A stretch of 32,000 bases of DNA from Fibrobacter succinogenes subsp. succinogenes S85 (GCF_000146505.1 NC_017448.1:1170001-1202000), one strand, 5' to 3'. Shown: positions 2,712 to 31,105, counted from the first letter of the stretch. Program-made: numbers and translations. Notes: generated from the letters alone by a model not told the origin.

Positions 2712-2759
2712 CCAGTTGCAAATTCGTTAGTTATATTTCAAAAAAAGACGCAAAGAACT

Positions 2760-4460
2760 ATGGGTTTAAAATTTTCCAATCTCACAAACAGCATCATCAT
2801 CAAGAGTTTACTGCTCTTGATTGTCTCAATGCTTGTCATCGTGATGATTGGAACTTACGTTTTCACCCAGAGGCAAATGAAGACCACGCTTAAACTGAGT
2901 TACGATACCAACGAAACCCAGTTACAGCAACTCGCAAACACGGTCAACAACGAAATGGAGCAGTTTGCAAGTCGTCTGACTTTGTTGGCAAAGACTTCCG
3001 AAATTCAAAGCATGGACAAGCTCATAGCGGCCGGTTACCTCAAAAGCTTCAACATATCGTCGCTATTCATTTCGGGCGAATCCATATCGCTCTTTGACCG
3101 TAGCTACAATCTTGTCTGCAACAACTCCATGCTAGGCTCAACCAAGATAACCTACCCTATCGAGTTCAATAGAATTTCTCCTCACAGGCCGACCATTTCT
3201 CCATGGTTCCGCGACACCGACGGCACTCCCAAGCGAGCCTTTGGCGTTGTCGTTTCGGACAGAGCCATGGGTGATGGAAGACTGGTATCAAACTTTTCGA
3301 TTCGCCGACTCTGGAAATACTTTTCGGAATACAAAGTCGGGCAAAACGGCATTCTCATCGCATGCAATGGCCAAGGCGAAATCCTTTACCACCCGGATAT
3401 GAGAACTTGGCTTGACGGAATCCACAAGATTACGGAACTCGGACTTGGCGACATGAACATCAAGCAGGATAGCGATAATTCCATTCGTTTCGTAAAGCTG
3501 GACAATGGAAAATCCTACCTCATCAACAGGACTTTCAACCCGACTTACGACCTTGGTCTTATCGCCTTACAGCCTAAGACAGAAATTGATGCAATGGTTT
3601 CGTCGGTTCACCATGTCAGCCAAATCATTTTGTTCAGTTCGATTATCGCCATCTTGCTCGTGTCTCTTTGGCAGATTCTAATTGTGTGTAAGCCATTGAA
3701 CAACTTGATTGACCACATCTCGCAAATCACCGAAGGCAAGCTGGACATTGAAGAATTCAAGGCCAGGAGCAGCCAGGACGAAATCGGCAGACTTGCCAAG
3801 GTGTTCAACCAGATGCATGCGACCATCAAGCGGCAGATTCAGGAACTGAACGCGCATAGGGACATGCTTGAAAAAGAAGTCAAGGAACGCACATACGAGC
3901 TTGAACAAGCTAATAAAAAACTGGATTTGATTTCTAGAACGGATGAACTGACACAGTTGCCGAACCGCCGCGACATGCACAGGACTATCGAAAAGGAAGT
4001 CGACCGTGCAAACCGATTCAAAAAGGCGTTCAGCATCATCTTTATTGATATTGACCATTTCAAAGACGTGAACGACACGTACGGACATGCCGCAGGCGAT
4101 GCCGTGCTCAAGTCGGTCGCAAGCACCATTCGCAGTCTGTTGCGCAAGTACGATGTGCTCGCCCGCTATGGTGGCGAAGAATTCCTGACGCTCCTCCCCG
4201 AAACGGAACTGAAGGATGCAGCACACGTCGCCGAACGATTCCGCAAGCAGATTGAAAACCAGACCATCTTCTTTGGCGGCCAGGAAATCAAAGTGACGAT
4301 TACGCTTGGCGTAGCTCAGTTTGATAGCGGCCTTGGTGCAGAACGCTGCATCCAGCTTGCAGACAAGGCCCTTTACGAAGGCAAGGAACACGGCAGAAAC
4401 AGGGTCATCCTCTGGACGGACGATCAGGCCGTGGAAAGCACCGACAAGCCACTCGCATAA
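2760..4460 (+). CDS. Membrane sensor diguanylate cyclase (periplasmic Cache-like domain, HAMP, coiled coil, GGDEF)
   Basis: 566-aa ORF with two TM segments flanking a ~250-aa extracytoplasmic domain. A HAMP-like linker (DEIGRLAKVFNQM) follows. The GGDEF domain has GGEEF at nt 4170-4184 and an RxxD I-site (RKYD, nt 4143-4154) five residues upstream. Confidence 0.85.
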   Translation: MGLKFSNLTNSIIIKSLLLLIVSMLVIVMIGTYVFTQRQMKTTLKLSYDTNETQLQQLANTVNNEMEQFASRLTLLAKTSEIQSMDKLIAAGYLKSFNISSLFISGESISLFDRSYNLVCNNSMLGSTKITYPIEFNRISPHRPTISPWFRDTDGTPKRAFGVVVSDRAMGDGRLVSNFSIRRLWKYFSEYKVGQNGILIACNGQGEILYHPDMRTWLDGIHKITELGLGDMNIKQDSDNSIRFVKLDNGKSYLINRTFNPTYDLGLIALQPKTEIDAMVSSVHHVSQIILFSSIIAILLVSLWQILIVCKPLNNLIDHISQITEGKLDIEEFKARSSQDEIGRLAKVFNQMHATIKRQIQELNAHRDMLEKEVKERTYELEQANKKLDLISRTDELTQLPNRRDMHRTIEKEVDRANRFKKAFSIIFIDIDHFKDVNDTYGHAAGDAVLKSVASTIRSLLRKYDVLARYGGEEFLTLLPETELKDAAHVAERFRKQIENQTIFFGGQEIKVTITLGVAQFDSGLGAERCIQLADKALYEGKEHGRNRVILWTDDQAVESTDKPLA

Positions 4461-4468
4461 ATAAGATC

Positions 4469-4489
4469 CGCAAAATTTCTATTTTTGCG
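4469..4489 (+). terminator. Weak hairpin between the diguanylate cyclase gene and dusA
   Basis: CGCAAAA-(7 nt)-TTTTGCG, an AT-rich stem of 7 bp with no separate U-tract. Confidence 0.2.
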
Positions 4490-4492
4490 TTC

Positions 4493-5530
4493 ATGAACAT
4501 TGACTTCAACCGTAGACTATCCATCGCTCCGATGCTTGACTGCACGGACCGCCACGAACGTTATTTCTTGCGTTTGCTTTCCAAGCACATTCTGCTTTAC
4601 AGCGAGATGGTCGTCTCTACGGGGCTTCTGCATTGCGAAAACAAGGACTTGTTCCTCGGACACGAACCGTTTGAACACCCGGCTGTGTTGCAGCTCGGCG
4701 GTAGCAATCCGGCGGATCTTGCCTCGGCCTCAAAGCTCGTGGAAGCGGCTGGCTTTAGCGAAGTCAACTTGAATTGCGGTTGCCCTTCGGACCGTGTGCA
4801 GAACGGGAACTTTGGCGCGTGCCTCATGAAAGAGAAGAACGTTGTCGCCGATTGCTTCAAGGCGATGCAGGACGCCGTTTCAATTCCTGTTTCTATCAAG
4901 TGCCGCATTGGGGTCGATGACCTGGACAGCTGGGAATTTTTCACAGATTTCATCCAGACCGTGCGTGATGCAGGCTGCAAAATTTTCATCGTGCATGCGC
5001 GCAAAGCTTGGCTCAAGGGACTCTCGCCTAAGGAGAACCGCGAAGTGCCGCCGCTCCATTACGAGTTCGTCCACCGCCTCAAGGCGGAGATGCCGGAGCT
5101 GAACTTGAGCATCAACGGAGGCATCAAGACGCTCGACCAAATTGAAGAACAGCTGAAAGATTTGGACGGCGTGATGGTCGGTCGCGAAGCCTACGAGAAT
5201 CCGTGGTTCCTGCACGATGCCGATGCAAGAATCTTCGGGGATGTCCGCCCAGAAAGCAACGACCCGGCTGAGATTATTGCCGGAAACGCTCGCCCCGCCA
5301 CAAGAAAGGCGCTCCTCGAAGCCTACCTCCCCTACGTCGAGAAGCAGACTGCCGAAGGCTGCCCCGCGACGATTCTCGTGAAGCACCTCTACGGGCTTTT
5401 TGCAGGACTCCCGGGCGCCCGCAAATTCCGCGCCACGCTCAGCAACGAGAGCCCCCGCGCCCACCTTTACGGAGGTGCCGCCGCCCTCATCCGAAAAGCG
5501 ATGGAACTCGTTGGTGAGACTAGAGACTAG
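4493..5530 (+). CDS. dusA: tRNA-dihydrouridine synthase A
   Basis: 345-aa ORF. The N-terminus RLSIAPMLDCTDRHERYFLRLLS, the motif NLNCGCPSDRVQNGNFGACLM and the overall length are typical of DusA. Confidence 0.9.
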   Translation: MNIDFNRRLSIAPMLDCTDRHERYFLRLLSKHILLYSEMVVSTGLLHCENKDLFLGHEPFEHPAVLQLGGSNPADLASASKLVEAAGFSEVNLNCGCPSDRVQNGNFGACLMKEKNVVADCFKAMQDAVSIPVSIKCRIGVDDLDSWEFFTDFIQTVRDAGCKIFIVHARKAWLKGLSPKENREVPPLHYEFVHRLKAEMPELNLSINGGIKTLDQIEEQLKDLDGVMVGREAYENPWFLHDADARIFGDVRPESNDPAEIIAGNARPATRKALLEAYLPYVEKQTAEGCPATILVKHLYGLFAGLPGARKFRATLSNESPRAHLYGGAAALIRKAMELVGETRD

Positions 5531-5550
5531 AGACGAGAGAAGAGAGAAAA
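5516..5550. repeat. Five tandem degenerate heptamers spanning the dusA stop codon
   Basis: The sequence reads GAGACTA GAGACTA GAGACGA GAGAAGA GAGAAAA. TAG occurs at two unit junctions (5521 out of frame; 5528 is the dusA stop). Confidence 0.7.
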
Positions 5551-5567
5551 CAAGCAATCTCTCGTCT
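5531..5567 (+). terminator. Perfect 10-bp hairpin immediately after dusA
   Basis: AGACGAGAGA (5531-5540) pairs with TCTCTCGTCT (5558-5567) across a 17-nt loop. TTCGTCT follows, so the U-tract is poor. Confidence 0.4.
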
Positions 5568-5622
5568 TTCGTCTGTAGCCCCCAAAGCGGGCGTTCTTTC
5601 GTCTAAAATTCTTCCCTACCCC

Positions 5623-5651
5623 TTGACAAGCGAATAAAATTTTTCTCTATT
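5623..5651 (+). promoter_or_regulatory. Candidate sigma70-like promoter for the small basic ORF
   Basis: TTGACA at 5623-5628, a 17-nt spacer, then TCTATT at 5646-5651 (4 of 6 matches to TATAAT). Confidence 0.25.
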
Positions 5652-5693
5652 TGGTGGCGTATTTTTAAGTTTAACCTTTAACGGAGATACAAC

Positions 5694-5789
5694 ATGCCTT
5701 GCGGAAAGAAAAGAAAGCGCAGGAAGATTGCGACTCACAAGCGTAAGAAGCGCCGTCGTCGTGACCGTCACAAAAAGAAACTTCGCTAA
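5694..5789 (+). CDS. Small, highly basic protein (31 aa), absent from the ORF track
   Basis: The ORF runs from ATG at 5694 to TAA at 5787-5789 and encodes MPCGKKRKRRKIATHKRKKRRRRDRHKKKLR (20 of 31 residues are K or R). GGAG lies ~9 nt upstream and a hairpin with T-run follows. It resembles the ~30-aa basic proteins annotated in FCB-group genomes as AURKAIP1/COX24-domain proteins (from memory). Confidence 0.6.
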   Translation: MPCGKKRKRRKIATHKRKKRRRRDRHKKKLR

Positions 5790-5825
5790 TATCCGTTAGC
5801 ATTTTCTTGTGATTTCCTGTAAAAG

Positions 5826-5850
5826 ACGGAGTGTAAAAGCTCCGTTTTTT
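5826..5850 (+). terminator. Intrinsic terminator candidate after the small basic ORF
   Basis: ACGGAG-(8 nt loop)-CTCCGT followed by TTTTTT. Confidence 0.4.
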
Positions 5851-5899
5851 CGTTTTTCATTTAGAAAAGTGACCAATTTTAGCGACAAAAAGACATCTG

Positions 5900-5915
5900 T
5901 TGATTCACAAATCAA
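5900..5915. promoter_or_regulatory. Inverted repeat (operator candidate) upstream of argF
   Basis: TTGATT-CACA-AATCAA, a perfect 6+6 palindrome ~35 nt upstream of the argF ATG. It is ARG-box-like in layout only. Confidence 0.3.
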
Positions 5916-5949
5916 ACGATAAATAGGGACAACCCCCAAAGGAAACCAA

Positions 5950-6909
5950 ATGATAGATCGCAACAAACACTTCCTCCGCCTCATGGACTGGAGTGAAGAA
6001 AAAGTTCTCGAAACCATCGAGATTGCCTCGCGTCTCAAGGCTGAAGTTCACGCTGGTAAGGTCTCTGACCGACTCCACGGCCAGAACATCGCCATGTTCT
6101 TCGAAAAACCGTCGCTGCGAACTATTACGACTTTCCAGGTGGGCATGAACCAGCTCGGCGGCCACGCCGTGCTTCTCTCCCCGGATTCTATTGGTCTCGG
6201 CAAGCGCGAAAGCGTCAAGGATGTCGCCCGCTGCCTCAGCCGCTGGGTCAACGCCATTGTGGTCCGTTGCTTCAAGCAGCAGCTCGTCGAAGAACTCGCT
6301 GAATACGGTTCCATTCCGGTTGTGAACGCTTTGACTGATGACTATCATCCGTGCCAGGCAATCGCTTTTGCCCAGATGATCAACGAAAGCCTCGGCGGAT
6401 TCAAGAACGCCGATGGCAAGCCGAAGACAGTCGCCTTCATCGGTGACGGCAACAACGTAGCGAACTCCTTCCTCGCCCTCGCCGCAAAGGTCGGCATGAA
6501 CTTTACGCTAGCCTGCCCGAAGGGCTTTGAACAGCCCGCCAAGGTTGTCGAAGAAGCGGAGGCCGGCTTGAAGAAGCACGGTTGCCAGTACCGCGTTTTC
6601 CACGATCCGAAGGAAGCTGTCAAAGACGCCGACATCCTCTATAGCGACGTTTGGGTTTCTATGGGTCAGGAAGGCGAAAAGGCAACCAAGCAAAGCCACT
6701 TCTTGCCGTTCCAGATTAACGACGAACTCTTGAAGCTCGCTCCTTCTCACTGCAAGGTCAGCCACTGCTTGCCGGCTCACCGCGGCGAAGAAATCACGGA
6801 CTCCGTGATGGACAATCTCGACGTGAACATGAGCTTCGAAGAAGCCGAAAACCGCCTGCACGCTCACAAGGCTGTTCTCTGGCAGGTGATGACGCCGTTC
6901 AACAAGTAA
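5950..6909 (+). CDS. argF: Ornithine carbamoyltransferase
   Basis: 319-aa ORF with the HPCQ, DVWVSMGQE (SMG loop) and HCLPAHRGEE motifs of canonical OTCases. The carbamoyl-phosphate motif reads SLRTI rather than STRTR. Confidence 0.85.
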   Translation: MIDRNKHFLRLMDWSEEKVLETIEIASRLKAEVHAGKVSDRLHGQNIAMFFEKPSLRTITTFQVGMNQLGGHAVLLSPDSIGLGKRESVKDVARCLSRWVNAIVVRCFKQQLVEELAEYGSIPVVNALTDDYHPCQAIAFAQMINESLGGFKNADGKPKTVAFIGDGNNVANSFLALAAKVGMNFTLACPKGFEQPAKVVEEAEAGLKKHGCQYRVFHDPKEAVKDADILYSDVWVSMGQEGEKATKQSHFLPFQINDELLKLAPSHCKVSHCLPAHRGEEITDSVMDNLDVNMSFEEAENRLHAHKAVLWQVMTPFNK

Positions 6910-6931
6910 GCGTCAAGTCTTGATGAAATTC

Positions 6932-6956
6932 GCCCGGCATCACCGCCGGGCTTTTT
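6932..6956 (+). terminator. Rho-independent terminator of argF
   Basis: GCCCGGC-ATCACC-GCCGGGC followed by TTTTT. Confidence 0.85.
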
Positions 6957-7013
6957 CATTGTCAGCCCTCCCCTAAATAGCTATATTTGGACTCGTTTTA
7001 AAAGGAGTTGCGA

Positions 7014-7985
7014 ATGTCCTTCATTCAGGATCTTAAGGAAAAAGTTCTCGGCGGTTATGAAATTTCTCGCGAGGACGCCATCAAGCTTTTAAGCGAAGAC
7101 CTCGACGAACTCACGAAAGCCGCTGACGAAATCCGCGAAAAATTCCACGGCGACGACTTTGATTTTTGTTCCATCGTGAACGCCCGCAGCGGTCGCTGCT
7201 CCGAAAACTGCAAGTACTGCGCCCAGAGCAGTTATTACCACACCGGCGCACCCGAATACAAGTTGCTCAGCGCCGACGAAATTGTCGCTGATGCCAAGAA
7301 GAAAGAAGCGGCTGGCATCCCGCGTTACTCCATCGTGACTTCTGGCCGTACGCTTTCGAACCGCGACGTGGAGCAGATCAGCGAAGCGCTCCGCCGCCTC
7401 AAAAAAGAGACGAAGCTTTCAATTTGCCTCTCGGCAGGTCTCTTGAACAAGGAACAGTTCGACAAGCTCAAGGAAGCAGGCCTCACCCGCTTCCACAACA
7501 ACTTGGAAACGTACCGCCGTCACTTCCCGGACGTTTGCACGACGCACACTTACGACGATAAGATCGGTGCGCTCCAGAACGCTCTTGCCGCAGGCCTTGA
7601 AATTTGCAGCGGCGGCATCATGGGCCTTGGCGAAACGATGGAAGACCGCATCGACATGTGCCTGGATTTGCGCAAGCTCGGCGTCAAGTCGACTCCGGTG
7701 AACGTGCTGAACGCCATTCCCGGAACGCCGTACGAAAACCTGCCGAAGCTCACGAACGACGAATTCTGCCGCATCGTGGCGATTTATCGATTCATCAACC
7801 CGAAGGCATTTATCCGCCTTGCAGGTGGCCGTGGCGTTTTGGGCGACGACGGCAAGCGTGCATTCAAGAGTGGCGCAAATGCGGCCATCACGGACGACAT
7901 GCTCACCACTGCCGGCGTAAACAGCTGCAAGGATTTCGAACTTGTGAAAGGTCTCGGATTCAAACCGCACGGATTTATCGGCTAA
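7014..7985 (+). CDS. bioB: Biotin synthase
   Basis: Radical-SAM CSENCKYCAQS motif and BioB-like sequence throughout. The track start at 7008 is a TTG. The ATG at 7014 lies 6 nt after AAGGAG. Confidence 0.92.
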   Translation: MSFIQDLKEKVLGGYEISREDAIKLLSEDLDELTKAADEIREKFHGDDFDFCSIVNARSGRCSENCKYCAQSSYYHTGAPEYKLLSADEIVADAKKKEAAGIPRYSIVTSGRTLSNRDVEQISEALRRLKKETKLSICLSAGLLNKEQFDKLKEAGLTRFHNNLETYRRHFPDVCTTHTYDDKIGALQNALAAGLEICSGGIMGLGETMEDRIDMCLDLRKLGVKSTPVNVLNAIPGTPYENLPKLTNDEFCRIVAIYRFINPKAFIRLAGGRGVLGDDGKRAFKSGANAAITDDMLTTAGVNSCKDFELVKGLGFKPHGFIG

Positions 7986-7994
7986 AAATAAAAA

Positions 7995-8030
7995 AGCGTT
8001 TTCGCAGATTCCCTTTTCTGCAAAAACGCT
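7995..8030. terminator. Bidirectional terminator between convergent bioB and the LanC-like gene
   Basis: AGCGTTTTCGCAGA-(8 nt)-TCTGCAAAAACGCT, with 13 of 14 positions paired. An A-run on the plus side gives a U-tract for the minus-strand transcript. Confidence 0.7.
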
Positions 8031-8052
8031 TCCGGATTCTATGTTTTAAATT

Positions 8053-9471
8053 CTAAGCAGCTTTTACCGGATTCAAGAAGAGATATTCTACCGTCTCAGT
8101 CTTGATTTTTATGCCTTTTTCGTGAGCGTAGAGATAAAGCAGTGCTGTACCGACACCAGCAGCGCCATCGTAAAGCCCCGTGTAGGTTTCTACGAAACCC
8201 GGCAATTTGCGAGTCCAAGCCGCAAACCAGCGACGTCCCTTGTCATCGTTCCAAGAATCACCTAGAAGCTTGTCTGCAGTGAGCTTCGCCTGTTCGATGT
8301 AGGATTCATCATTCAGTACTTCTGCCGTCTTCACGAAATGAGCGAGAACGCCAGGGGCTCCGCAGCAAAGGCAATAACTATTCCAATAACCCGGAGTATG
8401 CTTGAGTGGAGCGCCGGTCTTGAGGATACCCTTAGTGAGCAAGTCCACCCATTCCAAGTTTTCTTTGTTCTGAGTCACATCGAAAAGTTTGCGGAACAAA
8501 AGTGTTGTACCTACGGGACCATGGCAAGTCGAAAGGTAATAGAAGTCATGGAAACGCCCCTTTTCCGGATTGTAGAGATACGGAATCAAAGCACCATTTT
8601 CATCGCCCTCAACGATTGCCGAAAGGAACTTGACAACTTCATTCGCCTTGTCGAGATAAGCTTTTTCCTTAGTTTCTTCGTACAAGAGAACATTCAAGAA
8701 AGCGGATCCAGCAGCACCATGGCTAAAGTTAGGGAACACAGATTCCTTGGATTTCCAGCCAACAAGCGTCAAGTCCACGTTCTTGTAGTAAATGCCGCCT
8801 TCCTTGGCATGGACAATTCTCGTGTCTGTAAAAGCGACAACTTTTTTGGCCGCTTCTAGATACTTCTTGTCTTTAGTCTTGCGATAGACGTAAAGGAAGA
8901 AAAACGCGTAAGATCCATCGGCCATCAAGTCGGCTTCGGAGCTCCAGTGGAGCGTGTTACCGTCATCAACGCCTGCAGCGATGGAATCGTCAGCCGTGCG
9001 GATCAGGAATTCGCGGTAACGCGGATCGCCCGTATGTTCGTAAAGCTGTTCCACGAAAATTGCCTGCCCCGCCGGTGACGCATAGACACTCGTTCCCCAG
9101 CCCTTGACCGGCCAGACACCGCCGTCGTTTCCGTTCAACACATTATCAAAGAACTGTTTGCCTTCGTACGTGTTGAGGATGTATTCTGCTGCATCCTTTG
9201 CCTCTTGCAAATACGCTTCGTCCTGAGTGACATCGTAAAGTTGCAAGAAGAATTGGCCAATGCCAGCCGAGCCGGCATAAAGGCCCTTAGGCGTAATCAT
9301 CAGGTCGCCCTTGTACTCATTTCCCGGTTCCGGGCTTGCTTTCCAGTACTTGCCATGCGGCGTGACGACCTCATTTGTCTTGAGATACTTGACAATCTGC
9401 AAAACCGCTTCGAGATAATTTCCATTTTTGGAGGCGCTAAAATCTAGATTTTGAACAAAGTTTAATTTCAT
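8053..9471 (-). CDS. LanC-like (lanthionine synthetase C family) alpha/alpha-toroid protein
   Basis: 472-aa ORF with six spaced G-rich helix-start repeats: GLYAGSAGIG, YASPAGQA, SHGAAGSA, TCHGPVGT, LCCGAPGV and LYDGAAGVG. Each is followed ~20 aa later by D/E..YL..A. Cys and His candidates for a Zn site are present (TCHG, CCG, SHG). Its ATG overlaps the stop of the upstream gene (TAATG). Confidence 0.65.
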   Translation of the reverse strand: MKLNFVQNLDFSASKNGNYLEAVLQIVKYLKTNEVVTPHGKYWKASPEPGNEYKGDLMITPKGLYAGSAGIGQFFLQLYDVTQDEAYLQEAKDAAEYILNTYEGKQFFDNVLNGNDGGVWPVKGWGTSVYASPAGQAIFVEQLYEHTGDPRYREFLIRTADDSIAAGVDDGNTLHWSSEADLMADGSYAFFFLYVYRKTKDKKYLEAAKKVVAFTDTRIVHAKEGGIYYKNVDLTLVGWKSKESVFPNFSHGAAGSAFLNVLLYEETKEKAYLDKANEVVKFLSAIVEGDENGALIPYLYNPEKGRFHDFYYLSTCHGPVGTTLLFRKLFDVTQNKENLEWVDLLTKGILKTGAPLKHTPGYWNSYCLCCGAPGVLAHFVKTAEVLNDESYIEQAKLTADKLLGDSWNDDKGRRWFAAWTRKLPGFVETYTGLYDGAAGVGTALLYLYAHEKGIKIKTETVEYLFLNPVKAA

Positions 9472-10484
9472 TACACAGCCTCACTTTTTTTCTTTCTCTT
9501 GTACAAATCCGTGGAGAGATACTTGTAACCGTTATCGGCGTAAATCACCACAATGTTCTTGCCAGCCGCTTCGGGGCGTTTTGCAATCTGGATTGCTGCC
9601 GTAAGAGCTGCAGCCGCCGAAGTTCCAAGGAAGAGACCATCAGTCTTTGCGGTTTCCTGAGCGGTCTCGTAAGCTTCTTCGGCCTTGATGTCAATGATTT
9701 CATCAAATTCAAAACCGTTATTGCGGTTATCCTTGATAATCGTCGGCACCAAAGATTCATCAACACGGCCAAGCGGGAGCGTACCATCGACAATGTGTCC
9801 CGTAAAATCAGGATTGTCCGGTCGAGAAGTCGGAGCGGCCTGCACGCCAATGATTTTCACGTTTGGATTCTTTTCGCGGAGGTAGCGACCCGTACCTACG
9901 ATAGTACCCGCAGTACCGCCCATAGCAACAAAGTAATCCACATGGCCATCCGTATCGTTCCAAATTTCAGGACCTGTTGTCTGGTAATGATATTCCTGGT
10001 TGGCGTTGTTCAGAGTCTGGCCCGTGTAATACTGGCCCTTTTCCTTGGCGAGGCGTTCCATACCCGCAATCAGATCGTCGAGCACAAGGCCCTTCTTTTC
10101 AAAGTCGGCCACTTCCTTAATGTCATAGAAAGATTGCAAATCGAGACCGTAGCCTTCAAAAATCTGGACGCGTTCAATCGTCGTACCGGGTTCAAGATAA
10201 GGGACATATTCGTAACCAAGAGCGTGACCAATACCCGCAAGCGCAATACCTGTATTTCCACTCGTCACGTCAATCAACGTATCACCTTTTTTGATAGCGC
10301 CCTTCTTTTCGCCATCACGGATAAGGGCTAGAGCAAGGCGGTCTTTCACAGAGCCAGTCGGATTCAAGAATTCGAGTTTACCGATAATGTGCGCTTTGAG
10401 GCCGTACTTAGATTCGTAATTAGTCAGTTCAACAAGGGGAGTGTTACCAACGAGTTCAGCAATAGACTTATGAATTTTAGACAT
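9471..10484 (-). CDS. PLP-dependent cysteine synthase-family (fold type II, CysK/CBS-like) enzyme
   Basis: 337-aa ORF with NPTGSVKDR (PLP lysine), TSGNTG and GGTAGT loops. It is longer than typical CysK, carries inserts, and ends in a basic tail KRKKKSEAV. Confidence 0.8.
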   Translation of the reverse strand: MSKIHKSIAELVGNTPLVELTNYESKYGLKAHIIGKLEFLNPTGSVKDRLALALIRDGEKKGAIKKGDTLIDVTSGNTGIALAGIGHALGYEYVPYLEPGTTIERVQIFEGYGLDLQSFYDIKEVADFEKKGLVLDDLIAGMERLAKEKGQYYTGQTLNNANQEYHYQTTGPEIWNDTDGHVDYFVAMGGTAGTIVGTGRYLREKNPNVKIIGVQAAPTSRPDNPDFTGHIVDGTLPLGRVDESLVPTIIKDNRNNGFEFDEIIDIKAEEAYETAQETAKTDGLFLGTSAAAALTAAIQIAKRPEAAGKNIVVIYADNGYKYLSTDLYKRKKKSEAV

Positions 10485-10538
10485 GTTTGAGAATCCTTTT
10501 TTGTTAAAATTTTTAATTTGTTAATAGATTAGATTATT

Positions 10539-11333
10539 TTATTCAGCATCACCGTAAATATTGACCTTGTTGTCTTCCTTGGTGGCGGTATAACCAGCAT
10601 CTACAGGGAGCTTGATGCCTGTAATTGCAGAAGCCTGATCGCTCGTGAGGAAAAATACCGCATTTGCAATTTCTTCAGGTTCAATCCAACGGTTTAAAAT
10701 GCTACGGTCTTCAGCGGCCTTACGGAGTTTCGGATCCGAATAGTCATGTTTGATAGCCATCTCGGTCTTGGTAAAGCCCGGAGCTACAGAGTTCACACGA
10801 ATGCCATAGCGCCCTAGATGGAAAGCCGCTGCACGTGTAAGCCCATCGACCGCGGTCTTCGAAATGCCATAAGCAAACGGAGTCCATTCTGCAAAGGAGG
10901 CGACAAAAGAAGAAACGTTCACAATAGCTCCCTTGATGCCCTTTTCAATAAAGACACGACCTACATGCTGAATCAAATAGAGACTACCCCAAAGGTTCAC
11001 ATTTTCGGCCTGTTTGATTTCTTCCGGGTCAAAGCTAAGCACGTTTTTGCGATGGCCAACAATGCCTGCGTCATTGAACAAGGCATCAATGCGTCCGTAC
11101 TTCTTAACGATTTGAGCAACGACTTCTTGACCTTGTTTGTAATTAGCAACATCCAGCTCGTAAGCGGTCACATCGGCACCTTGAGCGGTGAGCTTCGCCA
11201 CTTCGCCATCGAGCTGTTCTTTTTTGATATCCGTTGCGGCAACAGCCCAACCTTCCTTGACATACTTCTTGACAGCGGCAAGGCCAATTCCCTGTGCGGC
11301 ACCTGTAATAACGATAACTTTCTTTTCACTCAT
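10539..11333 (-). CDS. Short-chain dehydrogenase/reductase (SDR)
   Basis: 264-aa ORF with the TGAAQGIG cofactor motif, NDAG, and a catalytic YGISK (YxxxK). AAGGAA lies upstream of the ATG. Confidence 0.85.
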   Translation of the reverse strand: MSEKKVIVITGAAQGIGLAAVKKYVKEGWAVAATDIKKEQLDGEVAKLTAQGADVTAYELDVANYKQGQEVVAQIVKKYGRIDALFNDAGIVGHRKNVLSFDPEEIKQAENVNLWGSLYLIQHVGRVFIEKGIKGAIVNVSSFVASFAEWTPFAYGISKTAVDGLTRAAAFHLGRYGIRVNSVAPGFTKTEMAIKHDYSDPKLRKAAEDRSILNRWIEPEEIANAVFFLTSDQASAITGIKLPVDAGYTATKEDNKVNIYGDAE

Positions 11334-11371
11334 TCTGAAATTCCTTTTTTGGTTTTTGCGGATACACCGGT

Positions 11372-11393
11372 AAAAGCGGTTTCATTCGAAACC
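11372..11393 (-). terminator. Weak hairpin plus U-tract inside the operon leader (attenuator candidate)
   Basis: The minus strand reads GGTTTC-GAAT-GAAACC followed by GCTTTTA, ~40 nt upstream of the SDR ATG. Confidence 0.2.
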
Positions 11394-11477
11394 TTGACAC
11401 ATGTTATCCTGATTTGTTGTGATTCCTTTGACTTCTTTTCTATAACCGTTGAAGCCCAAAGGATAATTGGCTTCTGG

Positions 11478-11525
11478 TTAGTTTATTTTCAGAATGCCTT
11501 CCGGCATTCGACAGTCGCTACACAT
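11478..11525 (-). CDS. 15-codon Cys-rich mini-ORF in the operon leader (leader peptide or precursor candidate)
   Basis: The minus strand reads AAGGAG-CATAT-ATG TGT AGC GAC TGT CGA ATG CCG GAA GGC ATT CTG AAA ATA AAC TAA, encoding MCSDCRMPEGILKIN. The ORF contains the perfect hairpin GAATGCC-GGAA-GGCATTC (11492-11509). Confidence 0.3.
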   Translation of the reverse strand: MCSDCRMPEGILKIN

Positions 11526-11594
11526 ATATGCTCCTTCGAAAGCCAAGGTGAAGTGAAAGACCTTTTCAATTCCCTATCGTTCTTGTATGTTATA

Positions 11595-11623
11595 AAATTA
11601 GAATATACCTTCTGCAATGTCAA
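11595..11623 (-). promoter_or_regulatory. Candidate promoter of the SDR/CysK-like/LanC-like operon
   Basis: On the minus strand, TTGACA (11623-11618), a 17-nt spacer, then TAATTT (11600-11595). This implies a ~255-nt 5' leader. Confidence 0.4.
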
Positions 11624-11804
11624 GGCATAGAGATATACTATTTTATCATGGGTAGCTATAAGATATAACTATAACAATAAATACCAGATTATTGAAGGGA
11701 ACGCGCGCACAAATGCTATCCTAGACTATGATATTTATTACACATTCCGTCAAAACACCTTTAAAATCTGTTCTTGAAAGGTGTAATTAATTAAATTTCC
11801 ATCG

Positions 11805-12629
11805 ATGGCTTTCAAAAAACGCCTCATTACGAGAATTCTAGTGGTATGCAGTTTGGTGTTACTTGCCAACTGCGCTTTTCCCGTACGCCCAGGATACGAC
11901 AGAAAGAGCGGTACCTACAAGCGATACAGAGTAGCCACTACGGCTCCAGAGCCCATCGATACCACTGCAGTAGACCCACAAGAAGAACTTGTGCAAGAAG
12001 AAAGACTTGCTACTGCGTCAACAACAAGCACAGACTCGCTTACTTCCTCCGCTGAAAAAAGCGCAAACACAAAAGACTCTACGGCGCACTTGTCTAAAAC
12101 ACAAAGCAAGCCTGATTCGACGGTAGTTCGGAAAGACTCAATCGTAAAAATTGATTCCACAAAAAAAGATCCCGTCAAAAAAGAACCTGCTTCCAAGACA
12201 TCAACCGCAGCAAAAACTGAAACCGCCAAAAAAACTACAAAACAGGCGAAACCAGCATCAAAGCCTACAAACCTTGAAAAGTACGCCAAGGAATGGCTTG
12301 GTGCCAAATACGTTTATGGCGCGGCTAGCAAAAAGAAGACAGACTGCTCCGGCTACGTGATGCAAGTTTATAAAGGCTTTTACGGGATATCACTGGACCA
12401 TAACGCACAACATATTTATGACGATGGGCGCGGCTATTCCATCAGGCGTACAAAATTGCAAGAAGGCGATCTCGTGTTTTTCGGGAACTTCTGGAAAATC
12501 AGCCACGTCGGCATTTACTTAAAGGGAAACCGATTTATTCACGCCAGTACGAGTAAGGGCGTAGTGATTACCTCCATGGACGATAACTATTGGTCATCCA
12601 AATACAAGGGCGCAAGACGATTTAAGTAA
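11805..12629 (+). CDS. NlpC/P60 (C40) cell-wall peptidase lipoprotein
   Basis: Lipobox LLANC, a long Thr/Ser/Lys/Pro-rich linker, then a C-terminal NlpC/P60 domain with catalytic DCSGYV and ISHVGIY...FIHAS. Confidence 0.85.
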   Translation: MAFKKRLITRILVVCSLVLLANCAFPVRPGYDRKSGTYKRYRVATTAPEPIDTTAVDPQEELVQEERLATASTTSTDSLTSSAEKSANTKDSTAHLSKTQSKPDSTVVRKDSIVKIDSTKKDPVKKEPASKTSTAAKTETAKKTTKQAKPASKPTNLEKYAKEWLGAKYVYGAASKKKTDCSGYVMQVYKGFYGISLDHNAQHIYDDGRGYSIRRTKLQEGDLVFFGNFWKISHVGIYLKGNRFIHASTSKGVVITSMDDNYWSSKYKGARRFK

Positions 12630-12646
12630 TTACTATCTTTTTCCAC

Positions 12647-13519
12647 ATGAAAAAGATAGCATTCCAGGGCCGTCGCGGGGCCTATAGCGAAAGTGCCGCC
12701 TACCACCTGTTCGGAAACGATATCGAAGTCGTGCCGATGGACACGTTCGAACAAATTTTCCAGGGCATTGAAACAGGTGTCGTTGACGGAGGCGCCATCC
12801 CTATAGAAAACTCGACCGCGGGTTCCATTTACGACAACTACGACTTGCTTTACAAGTGGCGCCATCCGATTGTCGCCGAAGTCAAGTTGCAGATTGAACA
12901 TACGCTCTGCGCATTGCCGGGCACAAAGCTCGAAGACCTTACCGAAGTCCTGAGCCACCCGCAGGGACTCGCCCAGTGCAGCCGCTTTTTCGGACAGCAC
13001 CCGAACATCAAGAGCACCGCATTTTACGATACCGCAGGCAGCGCCGAAGAAATCGCGAAGCGCGGCGACAAGCACATCGGTGCAATCGCAAGCGCATACG
13101 CTGCCAAGTTCTACGGTCTTGACATTTTAAAGCAAGGGCTCGAAAATTTGCCGGGCGTAAACTTCACGCGTTTTTACGCCATCCAGAAGACCGCAATTGA
13201 GCTGCCGGACTTCAAGGCAAACGAAACCGTCAAGCCGCCTATCAAGACGACGCTCCTTTTGATGTTGAGCGATTCCAGCAAGTCTGGCGCTTTGTACGAA
13301 GCGCTCGGTTGCTTTGCCAAGCGTAAGCTGAACCTCACGCGCATTGAGAGCCGCCCGCATCCGGACCGTCCGTGGGAATACATTTTCCACCTTTCGTTCG
13401 AAGGCAATCCGAAGGACCCGAATGTCGTTGAAGCGCTCAAAGAATTGCAGCAGTACACCGACTTCATTTATCGCCTCGGAAGCTTCCGCGAAGGAACAAC
13501 GGAGAAACTTTCTTATTAG
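12647..13519 (+). CDS. pheA: Prephenate dehydratase (PDT plus ACT domains)
   Basis: 290-aa ORF with KIAFQGRRGAYSE at the N-terminus, the IENSTAGSI motif, and TRIESRP in the ACT region. There is no chorismate mutase domain. Confidence 0.9.
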   Translation: MKKIAFQGRRGAYSESAAYHLFGNDIEVVPMDTFEQIFQGIETGVVDGGAIPIENSTAGSIYDNYDLLYKWRHPIVAEVKLQIEHTLCALPGTKLEDLTEVLSHPQGLAQCSRFFGQHPNIKSTAFYDTAGSAEEIAKRGDKHIGAIASAYAAKFYGLDILKQGLENLPGVNFTRFYAIQKTAIELPDFKANETVKPPIKTTLLLMLSDSSKSGALYEALGCFAKRKLNLTRIESRPHPDRPWEYIFHLSFEGNPKDPNVVEALKELQQYTDFIYRLGSFREGTTEKLSY

Positions 13520-13561
13520 ACGAAAGACCAAAGCTAACCACTAACCACTGTTTACTAACCA
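13517..13561. repeat. Heptamer array filling the pheA-rph spacer
   Basis: The sequence reads TAGACGA AAGACCA AAG CTAACCA CTAACCA CTGTTTA CTAACCA, then CC-ATG (rph). The reverse complement reads ...TAGTGGT TAGTGGT... Confidence 0.65.
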
Positions 13562-13563
13562 CC

Positions 13564-14289
13564 ATGTCCTACACACGCACAGACCGCAAACCTGAAGAAT
13601 TTCGCAATCTCAAGATGACCACGGGCTTTATCTCTAGCGCCGATGGTTCCGTACTCATTGAAATGGGACGCACCCGCGTCATCTGCAACGCAACGCTCCT
13701 CCCGAAAGTTCCGGACTGGCTTGCCGGTCGCGGCACGGGCTGGATCACGGCTGAATACAGCCTGCTCCCGCAAAGCACGGGCAAGCGCGTGGAACGCGAG
13801 CGCAAGGGCGCGAGCGGTCGCACTCAGGAAATCCAGCGCTTGGTGGGCCGTTCGCTGCGCGGCGCAGCTGATCTCGCCGCACTCGGCGAGAACGCCATCG
13901 TCGTGGACTGCGATGTGATTGAAGCCGATGGCGGCACGCGAACGGCTAGCATTATCGGTGGCTTTGTCGCACTCGCGATTGCAGTGAAGAAAATCAAGGA
14001 ACGCCTCGGCATCACGCAACAAATTCTTAAACACGGCATTACAGCAATTTCCGTGGGCGTCGTTGACGGCAATCCGCTTTGCGACCTCTGCTATGTCGAA
14101 GACTCTGCCGCCGACGTTGATATGAACGTCGTCATGCAAGATGCCAAGAACTTCATCGAAGTGCAAGGCACGGGCGAACACGCCAGCTTTGACCGCGCCA
14201 TGCTCAACACGCTCCTCGATCTCGGCGAAAACGCCTGCAAGGAAATCTACAAGAAGCAGATGGAATTGATTGGCGGTGAACTGCCGTAA
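13564..14289 (+). CDS. rph: Ribonuclease PH
   Basis: 241-aa ORF with DGSVLIEMGRTRVICNA, GRTQEIQRLVGRSLR and DCDVIEADGGTRTASI, all typical of RNase PH. Confidence 0.92.
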   Translation: MSYTRTDRKPEEFRNLKMTTGFISSADGSVLIEMGRTRVICNATLLPKVPDWLAGRGTGWITAEYSLLPQSTGKRVERERKGASGRTQEIQRLVGRSLRGAADLAALGENAIVVDCDVIEADGGTRTASIIGGFVALAIAVKKIKERLGITQQILKHGITAISVGVVDGNPLCDLCYVEDSAADVDMNVVMQDAKNFIEVQGTGEHASFDRAMLNTLLDLGENACKEIYKKQMELIGGELP

Positions 14290-14418: not shown

Positions 14419-16095
14419 TTATTTGATAACTAGGCCCTTTTTCCCAGAGACGAACGGGTCTTCGCCCGTCGAACAGAAATTCGTTTTTTCGGAGTACTTG
14501 CCAAGCCCTCTTATATTAATTCGGCTCTTAGCATTCGCTTCACCTTGGACTGCAAAGAGAATCGATGTCATAAATGTCGTACTGACTTCACTAAACACCG
14601 TCATAAAATTATCCCAATCGGCACATACCGTCTTTAGCTTAATGGACTTGGGCAATGTCATCTTAGGCATTCTAGAAAGATTTCCAAATCCACCTTCTTG
14701 AGTATAAGCCAAAACAACTTCCAAGTCAGAGTCCGAAGCATACGTTACGCACAAGCCTCCCCAACTTGAGATATTAGCCTTAGCAGCCGGTAAATCACCA
14801 TCAAGCGGATCAACAACACCAGCGACATGGAAACCTATACCCAAATAACCTTCTTTTGCAAATTGCAATTCACCACAAGCGCCCATACAGTAATCATAAA
14901 TTTCATCGCCCGTCGGATATTCAATCCCAAGCGGTTGCGGTAATTTTACAGAACCAACACCGGACATATCGTCGCCAAAGCTGAACCAATATCCTGAAGT
15001 TTCGGATCCGTTGTCTAGCCCGGTCTCAACATGATAATCATTATTATTGACAGCCTTCGGACCATACCACATTTCGCTAACGGACTCAGGCGAGACACAA
15101 TCGTGAGAAGGAGTAAAAGACGAACTGCTCCCGTTCACGCCAGAGCTGCTTGAGCTACGCAATATAATCGTTCCGACCTCAGCTCCTCCATTGAATTTAG
15201 AAACAACCTCCGCGAAACCGTCTACTTCGCACGCTCCCATCGCATCAAATTTACCGATTGCAGCGATATTGAAATGTCCTTTCGTTTCCTCGGAACTTTT
15301 CATTACGACTCTAATGGAATGGGCATGCTTAGCCGCCTCAGCAGCCGTCGATGTTGCTTTTGCTGTTGCACCGACAAATTCACTCCAAGGAACGCACTTT
15401 TCAACAAATTCAAGAGATTTGTCCAGTTTGACTTCATAGAAAGTAACTGAATCTGCGCCAAGCCACAAGAACATATCCCTGTCGGCAGCATACGTCACAC
15501 AAACACCGCCCCAGTCACTGATATCGCCATACCGCTGGATATGTTTCGTATAATATTCTTCAGGATTTTCAACCCCGGCGACATTAAATCCGACACCCGC
15601 AAAAGCTTCATTTAAGATGCCTTTTTGCAAGACAATCGCTCCACTATATCCCCCATAATATTCAAGCAAGTTTTCCATGCATTCATACTCAGGAGTTTCA
15701 AACGCGCAGACATCGGGAAAAACAACACTTGACGTTCCGCCATCAGGATCATCGCCAAAATTATACCAAAGTCCGGCATAATTATCAAGATCCTCATTAA
15801 CAAAACCCGTATTCACGTATGTCTTTTTATCAAAGCCCCGCCACAAGCAGGCAGCTGTATTCTTCGGTGTTTTGGCACTACTTGAGGAATTTACAATCAC
15901 GCTACTTGATGACTCGCCCCCAACGACGCTCGATGACATTCCAACACCATCACTGCTACCAGGAACGGTTTCAACAGATGAACTGCTATTGCCGTAAGCC
16001 GGGACATCAAAACTACCCGACGGGTTATCGTCAGAGCAAGCAACAAAGCCAAACAGCAAGGCACTCGCCGCAATATCTAAAATTCTCCTAAACAC
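14419..16095 (-). CDS. Two-module Cys-containing lipoprotein, lineage-specific paralog 3 of 3
   Basis: 558-aa ORF with a GTG start 6 nt after AAGGAG. The signal peptide and lipobox read MFRRIL...FVACSDDNPS and are followed by a Ser-rich linker. Two ~190-aa modules carry WGG(V/L)CVTY, AG(V/I)GF, KC/VCxxW and FNI/INIxG.GK motifs. Confidence 0.8.
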   Translation of the reverse strand: MFRRILDIAASALLFGFVACSDDNPSGSFDVPAYGNSSSSVETVPGSSDGVGMSSSVVGGESSSSVIVNSSSSAKTPKNTAACLWRGFDKKTYVNTGFVNEDLDNYAGLWYNFGDDPDGGTSSVVFPDVCAFETPEYECMENLLEYYGGYSGAIVLQKGILNEAFAGVGFNVAGVENPEEYYTKHIQRYGDISDWGGVCVTYAADRDMFLWLGADSVTFYEVKLDKSLEFVEKCVPWSEFVGATAKATSTAAEAAKHAHSIRVVMKSSEETKGHFNIAAIGKFDAMGACEVDGFAEVVSKFNGGAEVGTIILRSSSSSGVNGSSSSFTPSHDCVSPESVSEMWYGPKAVNNNDYHVETGLDNGSETSGYWFSFGDDMSGVGSVKLPQPLGIEYPTGDEIYDYCMGACGELQFAKEGYLGIGFHVAGVVDPLDGDLPAAKANISSWGGLCVTYASDSDLEVVLAYTQEGGFGNLSRMPKMTLPKSIKLKTVCADWDNFMTVFSEVSTTFMTSILFAVQGEANAKSRINIRGLGKYSEKTNFCSTGEDPFVSGKKGLVIK

Positions 16096-16126
16096 AACGC
16101 ACTCCTTTATTACTTAATTATAAATT

Positions 16127-17662: not shown

Positions 17663-17737
17663 ACAACACTCCTTTCTTTTATCTATAAATTGTAATATAT
17701 ATTATTTCTTTTACTTAGTTACCAGTTATGAATACAA

Positions 17738-17761
17738 AGCCCGCCGCTAACGCGACGGGTT
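17738..17761 (-). terminator. Hairpin downstream of lipoprotein paralog 1
   Basis: The minus strand reads CCCGTCGC-GTTA-GCGGCGGG followed by CTTTG. The plus-strand version is followed by TTTTCTT. Confidence 0.45.
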
Positions 17762-17808
17762 TTCTTACATCAATTCTTTTTATTTAGAAGCTTCGCTCCC
17801 AATATATT

Positions 17809-19969: not shown

Positions 19970-20096
19970 CGCAATAAATATATATAATTTTGTATTAAAC
20001 GGCAACATTTCATGATACCGTTTACACGTTTTTAGCTTAAATTTGCAAGAATTGCCGAAATTTAATCAAAATCGGCATTTTCTATGATACAGGAAA

Positions 20097-23084: not shown

Positions 23085-23095
23085 ACAACAGAATA

Positions 23096-23125
23096 TATAA
23101 AAAATCCCGGCTCGGATGAGTCGGG
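23096..23125 (-). terminator. Rho-independent terminator of argG
   Basis: The minus strand reads CCCGACTC-ATCC-GAGCCGGG (7 of 8 paired) followed by ATTTTTT. An 8-bp long-range stem (ACCCCGGC...GCCGGGGT, roughly 23136-23173) precedes it. Confidence 0.7.
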
Positions 23126-23191
23126 AAAAAGGCGACCCCGGCGCTTCGGCACGCTCAGCGACCTTAAGCCGGGGTGACATTGTCAAGAAAA

Positions 23192-29965: not shown

Positions 29966-30034
29966 GGCAAGAATATACAATTTTAGACGAGAGGAAAAAA
30001 GATGAAAGACGAGAGATATCGTCTATTTCTATAC

Positions 30035-30063: not shown

Positions 30064-30070
30064 TCGCCAC

Positions 30071-30436: not shown

Positions 30437-30441
30437 ACTAT

Positions 30442-30479
30442 GAAGGCTTCCGCGACAAACGGAAGCCTTCACCATTTTT
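30442..30479 (+). terminator. Rho-independent terminator of rnpB
   Basis: GAAGGCTTCCG-(7 nt)-CGGAAGCCTTC, a perfect 11-bp stem, then ACCATTTTT. It overlaps the stop codon of the convergent lipoprotein gene. Confidence 0.8.
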
Positions 30480-31077: not shown

Positions 31078-31105
31078 TCCATTTCTCCTTTCTTAAAAAT
31101 TTCTC

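Follow-up and report, generated by a model that had tools for sequence, protein, structure and literature searches.

What does a LanC-like protein do where the genes around it offer none of the machinery for making a lanthipeptide? The question is raised by FSU_1055-1053, three co-oriented genes on the minus strand of Fibrobacter succinogenes subsp. succinogenes S85, which span positions 8053-11333 of the 32,000-nucleotide stretch analyzed here (the window). Calling of open reading frames (ORFs) returns them at the coordinates of the original prediction and in the order short-chain dehydrogenase/reductase (SDR), pyridoxal 5'-phosphate (PLP) enzyme, and LanC-like protein. The last two are found to form a pair that recurs across related loci, mostly in the company of sulfur-related genes. 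Our tentative reading of the sequences and of the modeled structure, to which we give somewhat less than an even chance, is that the operon is a small-molecule sulfur salvage or transfer module combining (retro-)thia-Michael chemistry with β-replacement.

The three domain assignments of the original prediction were all recovered by Pfam, with 212 bits for adh_short_C2 in the SDR, 200 bits for PALP in the 337-residue PLP enzyme, and 98 bits, against a cutoff of 23.2, for LANC_like (PF05147) in FSU_1053. The best NCBIfam match of FSU_1053 is the C-terminal cyclase domain of LanM, which aligns collinearly over residues 12-448 with 105 bits, the LanM cutoff being 304. An AlphaFold (AF2) model built from 32 homologs has a predicted local distance difference test (pLDDT) score of 90.7 and a predicted template-modeling (pTM) score of 0.91, and it displays seven helix-pair repeats. 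A Foldseek search of this model against the PDB places LanCL2 and LanCL1 first (E ~1e-10, template-modeling (TM) score ~0.6), the leading 15 matches being LanCL2, LanCL1, MadC, CuvL, GCR2, ThurKC, and LicM2 (E 1e-10 to 1e-7, TM ~0.55-0.61), with NisC at rank 32 (E 2e-6, TM 0.58). The glycoside hydrolases GH88, GH76, and GH105 and the sugar epimerases stand below the LanC proteins, with TM scores of 0.41-0.48. The possibility, left open in the original prediction, that the protein belongs to another six-hairpin family is thus decided in favor of the LanC fold by both Pfam and Foldseek.

In LanCL1, His219 is the acid that protonates the enolate, Cys276, Cys322, and His323 are the zinc ligands, and His277 stabilizes the enolate (PMC9934072). 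The corresponding residues in FSU_1053 are H251, C316, C369, C370, and H317, respectively; the NisC counterpart of His219 is His212. The original prediction had considered the order of the motifs SHG (residue 250), TCHG (residue 315), and CCG (residue 369) to be unusual. This has to be corrected, because the three motifs map one-to-one onto His219, Cys276-His277, and Cys322-His323 of LanCL1, and the order is therefore canonical. The Cys/His metal-ligand candidates suggested at the same time fared better: in the alignment of the 32 homologs C316, C369, and C370 are invariant and H317 is nearly so. H251, located in the sequence PNFSHGAAG, is kept in all aligned homologs at least 35% identical to FSU_1053, while a few distant ones have Y, M, or F at this position. 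Sequence and model together make FSU_1053 a solid member of the LanC/LanCL superfamily, with a catalytic set that appears complete and in canonical order, namely a predicted Zn(Cys)3 site formed by C316, C369, and C370, with H251 as the acid and H317 as the enolate stabilizer.

Two variants are combined in this predicted active site. The first is the LanCL-type His that follows the first zinc Cys; at the enolate-stabilizing position the LanCLs of eukaryotes have His, most of the bacterial stand-alone LanCs have Tyr, and the LanMs have Lys, Asn, or His (PMC9934072). The second is the CCG three-cysteine zinc site, a motif of the ProcM type (PMC13509491). Elsewhere among the homologs, the LanC-like domain of a 1317-residue representative protein (P0371) lies C-terminal to a hydrazine-synthase alpha middle domain. 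Exported LanC-like proteins also exist, since three distant homologs (P0071, P0081, and P0099) begin with twin-arginine-like signal sequences.

Eighty related loci, many of them contigs of metagenome-assembled genomes (MAGs), were collected from the LanC-like side. The LanC-like and PALP genes are adjacent in 74 of the 80; four of the others are cut by contig ends and two (L017 and L050) truly lack PALP, which brings the adjacency to 74 of 76 informative loci. Recurrence on this scale argues that the pairing is more than chance. The pair is carried by Fibrobacter, Treponema, Lachnospiraceae, Coriobacteriia, and some Actinomycetota, and the distance between the two genes is mostly an overlap (-4 nt) or 5-45 nt. 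The TAATG overlap of the PLP stop and the LanC-like start claimed for S85 was read directly in the sequence.

By the identity of the LanC-like proteins, three groups can be told apart. Clade A, where the LanC-like proteins have at least 58% identity, contains Fibrobacter, Hallerella, rumen Clostridiales MAGs, a Lachnospiraceae MAG (78%), an Actinomycetaceae MAG (67-68%), and the isolate Granulicoccus phenolivorans DSM 17626 (68%). Here the order SDR-PALP-LanC is shared, with unrelated flanks, and the SDR travels with PALP and LanC at 67-78% identity. Clade B (37-44% identity) comprises about 60 loci from Treponema, Lachnospiraceae, and Coriobacteriia; it has no SDR, and its gene order is LanC-PALP, sometimes PALP-LanC-LanC or LanC-PALP-LanC. 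The LanC-like/PALP pair survives a swap of gene order and a change of phylum, with unrelated flanks. In the third group, made up of LanC-like homologs of 29% identity, the association with PALP is no longer seen. An intermediate group found from the SDR side adds two further arrangements: L090 reads PALP-LanC-SDR-binding protein-permease, and L091 (ENA ERZ1767555 NODE_70, 2044-13663) consists of a Cys/Met-PLP gene, a PatB-like aminotransferase, a LanC-like gene, two SDRs, two more LanC-like genes, and an NMT1-type ABC importer. Across these arrangements, the conserved unit is the LanC-like/PALP pair, and the triad with the SDR is the version of one clade, clade A. The synteny expected for the triad therefore holds for the pair, and for the SDR only in the clade of at least 58% identity plus those variants.

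One of the two loci without PALP, L017 (a Hallerella MAG, 7458-9279), also has no SDR gene, and the first ~19 codons of its LanC-like gene are missing, but the genes of the cystathionine γ-enzyme and PatB are still found after it. The locus seems to have undergone a deletion or rearrangement recently. Candidate LanC-PALP fusions were discarded: none was present in the best 150 of 1153 representative clusters, the long matches carrying other domains, and P0167 is merely a truncated SDR-PALP read-through. A search for plasmid carriage gave no close copy, the best match being a monocistronic Mesobacillus gene at 30% identity, which is uninformative.

Some of the taxonomic breadth has to be discounted. 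Five contigs (L007, L010, L013, L014, and L018) carry operons of 81-82% identity and are labeled as a Methanomethylophilaceae archaeon, Alistipes onderdonkii, Oscillospiraceae, Senegalimassilia, and Sodaliphilus. Fibrobacter-type flanks, for example, a GH10 xylanase with a Por secretion tail, are nevertheless shared by L007, L010, L014, and L018, while L013 is too short for this comparison. These contigs are likely mis-binned MAG sequences. The main support for a spread across phyla therefore comes from the Granulicoccus isolate and from Actinomycetaceae, Lachnospiraceae, and Treponema, where the flanks are independent; the complete genome of T. ruminis (L056) is among the Treponema cases. In the window, the GC content at third codon positions (GC3) is 0.46-0.54 in the operon genes and 0.47 in the NlpC/P60 gene versus 0.71 in argF, 0.69 in bioB, and 0.67 in pheA, which suggests an acquired island of ~4.6 kb at 8053-12629 that includes the divergent NlpC/P60 gene. 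In Granulicoccus the operon genes are 68-76% identical, and an IS481 transposase lies directly downstream. The low GC3 of the operon and the IS481 element beside the Granulicoccus copy are consistent with horizontal spread, and FSU_1055-1053 was probably acquired horizontally.

Judged by its genes, FSU_1055-1053 is not a member of lanthipeptide classes I-IV. The statement of the original prediction that the lanthipeptide machinery is absent agrees with a Pfam sweep, which covered 20 of the 22 further large ORFs in the window (all except the two at 30478-31750) and found no LanB, LanM, LanKC, LanL, protease, or exporter. No lanthipeptide dehydratase occurs among the recurrent neighbor families of the 80 loci, no conserved small ORF that could hide a precursor peptide lies in their inter-gene gaps or beside the genes, and their transporters are binding-protein-dependent importers or SSF symporters. 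The only candidate for a precursor peptide is a 15-codon ORF upstream of the operon, which is too short for a leader plus a core and is missing from most loci.

The PLP enzyme stays below every NCBIfam cutoff with which it was compared: 264 bits versus 344 for the subfamily model cysKM, 237 versus 351 for cysK (TIGR01139), 236 versus 394 for cysM (TIGR01138), 185 versus 600 for the cysteate synthase CapA, and 200 versus 510 for the cystathionine β-synthase (CBS) model cysta_beta. Among solved structures, cysteine synthases of plants and bacteria come closest to it (~200 bits). In an alignment with CysK, for which a provisional E. coli reference sequence was used in the residue and loop comparison, the enzyme retains the Schiff-base Lys (SVKDR), the TSGNTG loop, the Gln (Gln142), the phosphate loop, and the equivalent of Ser272. 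The entrance loop KIQGIGAGFIP is replaced by IDG(T/V)L...VP in the subfamily (IVDGTLPLGRVDESLVP in the window protein), GISSGAA is replaced by G(T/Q)SA(A/G)AA, and an insertion of ~11 residues after the GMKG region is common to all members. In L038 and L040, paralogs with the canonical CysK motifs share the locus with the divergent gene. The missed cutoffs, the subfamily-specific loops, and the canonical paralogs alongside indicate that the enzyme is not a housekeeping CysK, the identity that would have refuted the original prediction, and by these sequence features it is placed in a distinct CysK-fold subfamily that is not equivalent to CysK, CysM, CBS, SbnA, or CapA. In L040 (Lachnospiraceae), a weak tRNA-like Rfam match (36 bits) is found at 7787-7856 (+), between the canonical-type CysK paralog and the LanC-like gene.

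The SDR has the features of a classical member of its family, with TGAAQGIG at residue 10, NDAG at residue 87, and YGISK at residue 155. It is below every NCBIfam equivalog cutoff, and the closest solved structures are generic SDRs. A 2,3-diaminopropionate pathway of the SbnA/SbnB type was considered and rejected, because the PLP enzyme reaches 172 bits against a PLP_SbnA_fam cutoff of 350 and the dehydrogenase is a classical SDR, not an ornithine-cyclodeaminase-like protein.

The metabolic setting of the pair emerges from the neighboring ORFs of the related loci, which were clustered and their recurrent families annotated. A PatB-family C-S lyase (453 bits versus a cutoff of 340) is present in 34 loci, and a cystathionine γ-synthase/lyase of the Cys_Met_Meta_PP family (478 bits) is adjacent or near in 31 (22 in clade B and 9 in clade A). 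An ABC importer, made up of an NMT1/SsuA-like binding protein, a permease, and an ATPase, is found in 18 loci, while an SSF symporter with DUF997, a LysR regulator, and a CymR-like Rrf2 regulator occur in 6 each; an NifS-like aminotransferase and, in L089, a MetE-like gene are further neighbors. When only loci of at least 12 kb are counted, PatB and/or the γ-enzyme is present in 23 of 37, and at least one sulfur-related neighbor in 29 of 37. In several Fibrobacter genomes the operon runs on as SDR-PALP-LanC-γ-enzyme-PatB. The variant loci L089-L091, with several LanC-like paralogs that keep the CHG and CCG motifs, SDRs, and an importer, look like a substrate-diversified salvage toolkit. With PatB, the γ-enzyme, Ssu-type importers, and CymR or LysR nearby, sulfur salvage or assimilation is favored over the synthesis of a secondary metabolite. 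In its general idea, the earlier suggestion of a pathway for small-molecule thioethers or thiol adducts is in keeping with these findings, and it is its secondary-metabolite side that the context disfavors. An identification of the transporter as SaoX was dropped, because SaoX is a component of a selenoprotein system that is not related, and because the match, at 84 bits, is far short of the cutoff of 300. Solved structures related to the binding protein provided only generic NMT1/THI5 matches and no hint of the substrate.

The proposed mechanism builds on what the sequences and the model support directly, namely, the enzyme families, the fold, the intact catalytic residues, the conserved tight pairing, and the sulfur context. 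The module would shuttle sulfur between cysteine and an organosulfur compound taken up by the cell. The LanC-like protein, with a thiolate bound at the Zn(Cys)3 site, His251 as the acid, and His317 stabilizing the enolate, would make or, more likely, break a thioether in a free cysteine S-conjugate or a related organosulfur compound through (retro-)thia-Michael chemistry. The retro-Michael reaction is known to occur and requires the acid His (PMC9934072). The SDR, where present, could interconvert hydroxyl and carbonyl groups beside the thioether, by which the Michael system would be created or removed. The CysK-fold enzyme would form the PLP-aminoacrylate and fix the sulfur as cysteine by β-replacement, either from sulfide or a thiol or by thiol exchange on an S-substituted cysteine, and in many genomes PatB and the cystathionine γ-enzyme would hand it on to homocysteine and methionine. 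In this scheme we infer the substrates, the direction of salvage, and the manner, as a complex or in sequence, in which the two proteins act.

Several points weigh against this proposal. The window locus has no adjoining transporter, PatB, or γ-enzyme, and its sulfur context is borrowed from the homologous loci. The partners are not obligate, as L091 has three LanC-like paralogs without PALP and the PALP homologs of Corynebacterium and Brachybacterium (74-75%) are solitary. Sulfide-rich gut and rumen habitats lessen the need for salvage, and free amino-acid thioethers are poor substrates for a retro-Michael reaction unless a carbonyl is correctly placed. No substrate class can be read from the SDR sequence or from solved structures, the searchable literature contains no mention of FSU_1053-1055, and neither an S-box nor a T-box was found in 16 homologous loci at the Rfam gathering thresholds, so that the control seems to be protein-based.

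An alternative role, which was among the options of the original prediction and which we consider unlikely, is the detoxification of electrophiles in anaerobes without glutathione. The LanC-like protein would then add cysteine to α,β-unsaturated aldehydes, ketones, or acids of plant or fermentation origin, the SDR would reduce the carbonyl of the adduct, and the CysK-like enzyme would supply the cysteine. An SDR together with a thiol transferase is a frequent pairing in detoxification, and the carriers are fiber-degrading gut and rumen organisms. In eukaryotes, LanCLs act on Michael acceptors as glutathione S-transferases, FSU_1053 has the His277-type residue of these proteins (PMC9934072), and LanCL1/2 are its first Foldseek matches. 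However, the recurrent partners are ABC importers, C-S lyases, and Cys/Met regulators rather than exporters or stress regulators, and most of the loci, being of clade B, lack the SDR.

That the operon synthesizes a free thioether or β-substituted amino acid, the main reading of the original prediction, is improbable; the product might be a cyclic thioether, a cofactor, or a compound resembling lanthionine or cystathionine. In such a pathway the PLP enzyme would make a β-substituted alanine, the LanC-like protein would form a second C-S bond, and the SDR would tailor the product. The absence of recurrent further biosynthetic, export, or self-resistance genes speaks against this, as does the catabolic or assimilatory context of importers, C-S lyases, and CymR/LysR regulators; the expansion of paralogs in L091, together with its importer, resembles breadth of substrate and not a single product. 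The chemistry itself has precedents, in that CysK/CBS-family enzymes make lanthionine and other β-substituted alanines (PMC5247676) and LanC chemistry makes thioethers (PMC9934072), and the PLP and LanC-like genes are tightly coupled.

Just as doubtful, or slightly more so, is a role of the LanC-like protein as a binding partner of the CysK-like enzyme, either regulating it according to the thiol present or shielding both enzyme and cell from aminoacrylate/dehydroalanine damage. A precedent is provided by mammalian LanCL1, which is reported to bind and inhibit CBS (Zhong et al. 2012, as cited in PMC5247676); CBS and CysK share a fold family. LanCLs also clear dehydroamino acids from proteins (PMC9934072), and the strict adjacency with frequent start/stop overlaps would suit a complex. 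Each gene is, however, also found without the other, fusions are lacking among the representative clusters inspected, and the several LanC paralogs per locus with a full catalytic set favor an enzyme for varied substrates.

A cryptic minimal lanthipeptide system, in which the product of the upstream ORF (MCSDCRM...) or a distant precursor would be the LanC substrate after dehydration in trans, is very improbable. The short Cys/Ser ORF does have a good ribosome-binding site and is conserved in three related loci, but besides the missing dehydratase, protease, and exporter, there is no leader-like region in the scanned window ORFs or recurring in the 80 loci; half of the Fibrobacter-type leaders and every clade-B locus lack the ORF, and its position and Cys codons suit a leader peptide better. 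That the 472-residue protein is a six-hairpin glycoside hydrolase or epimerase is hardly conceivable, since the weak Pfam matches to GH88, GH76, GH47, and C5-epimerase (27-39 bits) and the presence of such structures lower in the Foldseek list are outweighed by the LANC_like score, the higher TM scores of the LanCL and LanC proteins that come first, the invariant Cys3 site with the conserved catalytic His, and the collinear alignment with the LanM cyclase domain.

The region upstream of the operon contains possible regulatory elements. The upstream ORF MCSDCRMPEGILKIN lies 192 nt upstream of the SDR start. Its first residues, MCSDCRM, are kept in L010, L013, and L015, with the first seven codons identical at the nucleotide level (MCSDCRMQASIQN), and an Actinomycetaceae locus (L020) has MCMCCQ at the same upstream place. 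The chance of such a Cys-codon ORF is 3-7% per leader, and two lineages carry one; it is missing from about half of the clade-A leaders. Polycysteine leader-ORF attenuators in mycobacteria set a precedent (bioRxiv 10.1101/834739), by analogy with which this ORF may tentatively be taken as a cysteine-sensing leader peptide. Within it, the hairpin GAAUGCC-GGAA-GGCAUUC retains its stem in L010, L013, and L015, with a different loop. Its 3' arm and the following bases (CAUUCUGAAA) are perfectly complementary to the SDR start region (UUUCAGAAUG, 11331-11340), which could constitute an alternative-structure switch. By chance, complementarity of at least 10 nt is uncommon here (10 of 2000 shuffles), but because the related loci do not conserve it, this 10-nt anti-start pairing of the upstream ORF was set aside as evidence. 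No relevant riboswitch or T-box was found, either in the window and 16 homologous loci at the Rfam gathering thresholds or in a permissive scan of the leader.

The candidate promoter of the original prediction is present as a TTGACA-N17-TAATTT sequence. A consensus scan made no call there, so that it stays a candidate; it lies within a block that is partly conserved in other Fibrobacter-type leaders. Farther upstream, at ~11625-11680 (-), leader blocks are conserved in L007, L010, L014-L016, and L018, among them a near-perfect palindrome, TATAGTTTAAAACTATA in the relatives and TTATAGTTATATCTTATAGCTA in the window; the same leaders also share AATAGTATA and a TA..TT element. These blocks could represent an operator and an FCB-type promoter. 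At the other end, the operon of S85 stops at a terminator-like hairpin facing the convergent bioB gene, without the continuation into γ-enzyme and PatB. What had been described as a bidirectional terminator does consist of a hairpin and a T-run, and it is the bidirectionality that is not borne out by the call, which was made on one strand. The positions of the individual features are collected in the table.

Table. Positions of the operon genes, the signals associated with them, and argF in the 32,000-nt window.
Feature	Position	Strand	Details
Classical SDR oxidoreductase, operon gene 1	10539-11333	-	264 aa; ACX74236.1/ADL26389.1; adh_short_C2
Divergent CysK-fold PLP enzyme, predicted β-replacement	9471-10484	-	337 aa; ACX74235.1; PALP
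Stand-alone cytoplasmic LanC-like protein, predicted zinc thiol-ene enzyme	8053-9471	-	472 aa; FSU_1053, ACX74234.1, WP_014545401.1; LANC_like
TAATG stop/start overlap of the PLP and LanC-like genes	9468-9472	-	sequence read GTG-TAATG-AAA
Intrinsic terminator-like hairpin at the operon end	7992-8033	-	17-bp stem (6 GC pairs) followed by TTATTTTT; minus-strand call only
Candidate promoter TTGACA-N17-TAATTT	11595-11623	-	sequence read; no call by consensus scan
15-codon upstream ORF MCSDCRMPEGILKIN	11478-11525	-	AAGGAG ribosome-binding site; tentative cysteine-sensing leader
Hairpin GAAUGCC-GGAA-GGCAUUC within the upstream ORF	11492-11509	-	tentative regulatory element
argF	5950-6909		identified by name

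The rest of the window is mostly housekeeping, with genes for a solute-binding protein, GGDEF, Dus, ArgF, BioB, NlpC/P60, PheA, RNase PH, ArgG, and RecG, and several ORFs have no Pfam match. Four large ORFs of the latter kind, of 558, 511, 446, and 610 residues, are located at 14419-19149 (-) and 28148-29980 (-); the first three of them adjoin a DUF4423 gene at 19130-20008, and a gene with a Fib_succ_major domain is found at 22380-23282. A full-length bacterial RNase P class A RNA (271 bits) occupies 30070-30440 (+). The plus-strand ORFs at 10818-11630 (270 residues), 9795-10331 (178 residues), and 8338-8859 (173 residues), which overlie the three operon genes in antisense, look like shadow ORFs and not genes.

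Among known systems, the eukaryotic LanCL1 and LanCL2 are the best structural match to FSU_1053, with which they share the stand-alone LanC fold, the zinc-thiolate site, the acid His, and the His277-type residue. They use a small-molecule thiol and do not cyclize peptides, and they reportedly have a link to a CysK/CBS-fold enzyme. FSU_1053 differs from them in its sequence (13-17% identity), in having Cys rather than His as the third zinc ligand, in being ~70 residues longer, and in sharing an operon with a PLP enzyme; unlike the hosts of LanCLs, the carrier organisms presumably lack glutathione. The ProcM-type LanM cyclase domain has the same CCG three-cysteine zinc motif and provides the best NCBIfam match, whereas FSU_1053 has no dehydratase domain and its locus has neither precursor peptides nor a transporter. 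NisC is likewise stand-alone and of the same fold, and by analogy its chemistry would be the same, but the NisC-type enzymes have a Tyr as enolate stabilizer and a Cys2His zinc site (PMC9934072) and work with LanB, LanA, LanT, and LanP, none of which is present at the locus.

The PLP enzyme, in turn, resembles CysK/CysM and MccA/CBS in fold and catalytic residues and departs from them in its sub-cutoff scores, the altered loops at the active-site entrance, and the insertion. Many homologous loci pair its gene with Cys_Met_Meta_PP under CymR-like or LysR control, which recalls mccA-mccB. No CysK, MccA, or CBS operon is known to contain a LanC-like gene, and the literature search returned none. 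Thiol addition followed by a PLP-dependent C-S lyase is the logic of GliG/GliI in gliotoxin biosynthesis and of bacterial coenzyme M synthesis, which rely on GST-fold or other catalysts in dedicated biosynthetic clusters. The module proposed here would likewise join a thiol-ene or thiol-transfer step to PLP enzymes that cleave or exchange the C-S bond of cysteine, and a PatB gene often neighbors the LanC-like/PALP pair, the catalyst here being of the LanC fold. A bacterial LanC-like/CysK-like module was not found in the curated families, the solved structures, or the searchable literature, and the latter yielded no characterized system with this triad, in line with what had been stated originally. 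Known catalytic families thus occur in a conserved partnership and a metabolic setting that appear to be new.

Exact matches to the three proteins show that the databases name FSU_1053 a "lanthionine synthetase LanC family protein", ACX74235.1 a "cysteine synthase family protein", and ACX74236.1 an SDR; the labels "lantibiotic modifying enzyme" and "cysteine synthase A" are also in use for the genes. The labels "lanthionine synthetase" and "lantibiotic modifying enzyme" used in genome mining probably mislabel hundreds of loci. Bacterial LanC-type enzymes have so far been known only as peptide cyclases of lanthipeptides, and the function of LanCL1/2 in animals was long obscure, their reported tie to CBS being unexplained. 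A broader possibility, to which we give distinctly less credence than an even chance, is that stand-alone LanC-fold enzymes acting on free thioethers or cysteine S-conjugates, with a CysK-fold partner in sulfur acquisition, are widespread in bacteria and represent the prokaryotic counterpart, possibly the evolutionary root, of the animal LanCL-CBS link. With a LanC-like/CysK-like pair that is conserved, horizontally shared, and placed within Cys/Met operons of major fiber degraders of the gut and rumen (Fibrobacter, Treponema, Lachnospiraceae, and Coriobacteriia), LanC chemistry would gain a role in primary sulfur metabolism, an unrecognized route for organosulfur nutrition or detoxification in the guts of herbivores and humans would be indicated, and the pair would offer a tractable bacterial model for the relationship between LanCL and CBS.

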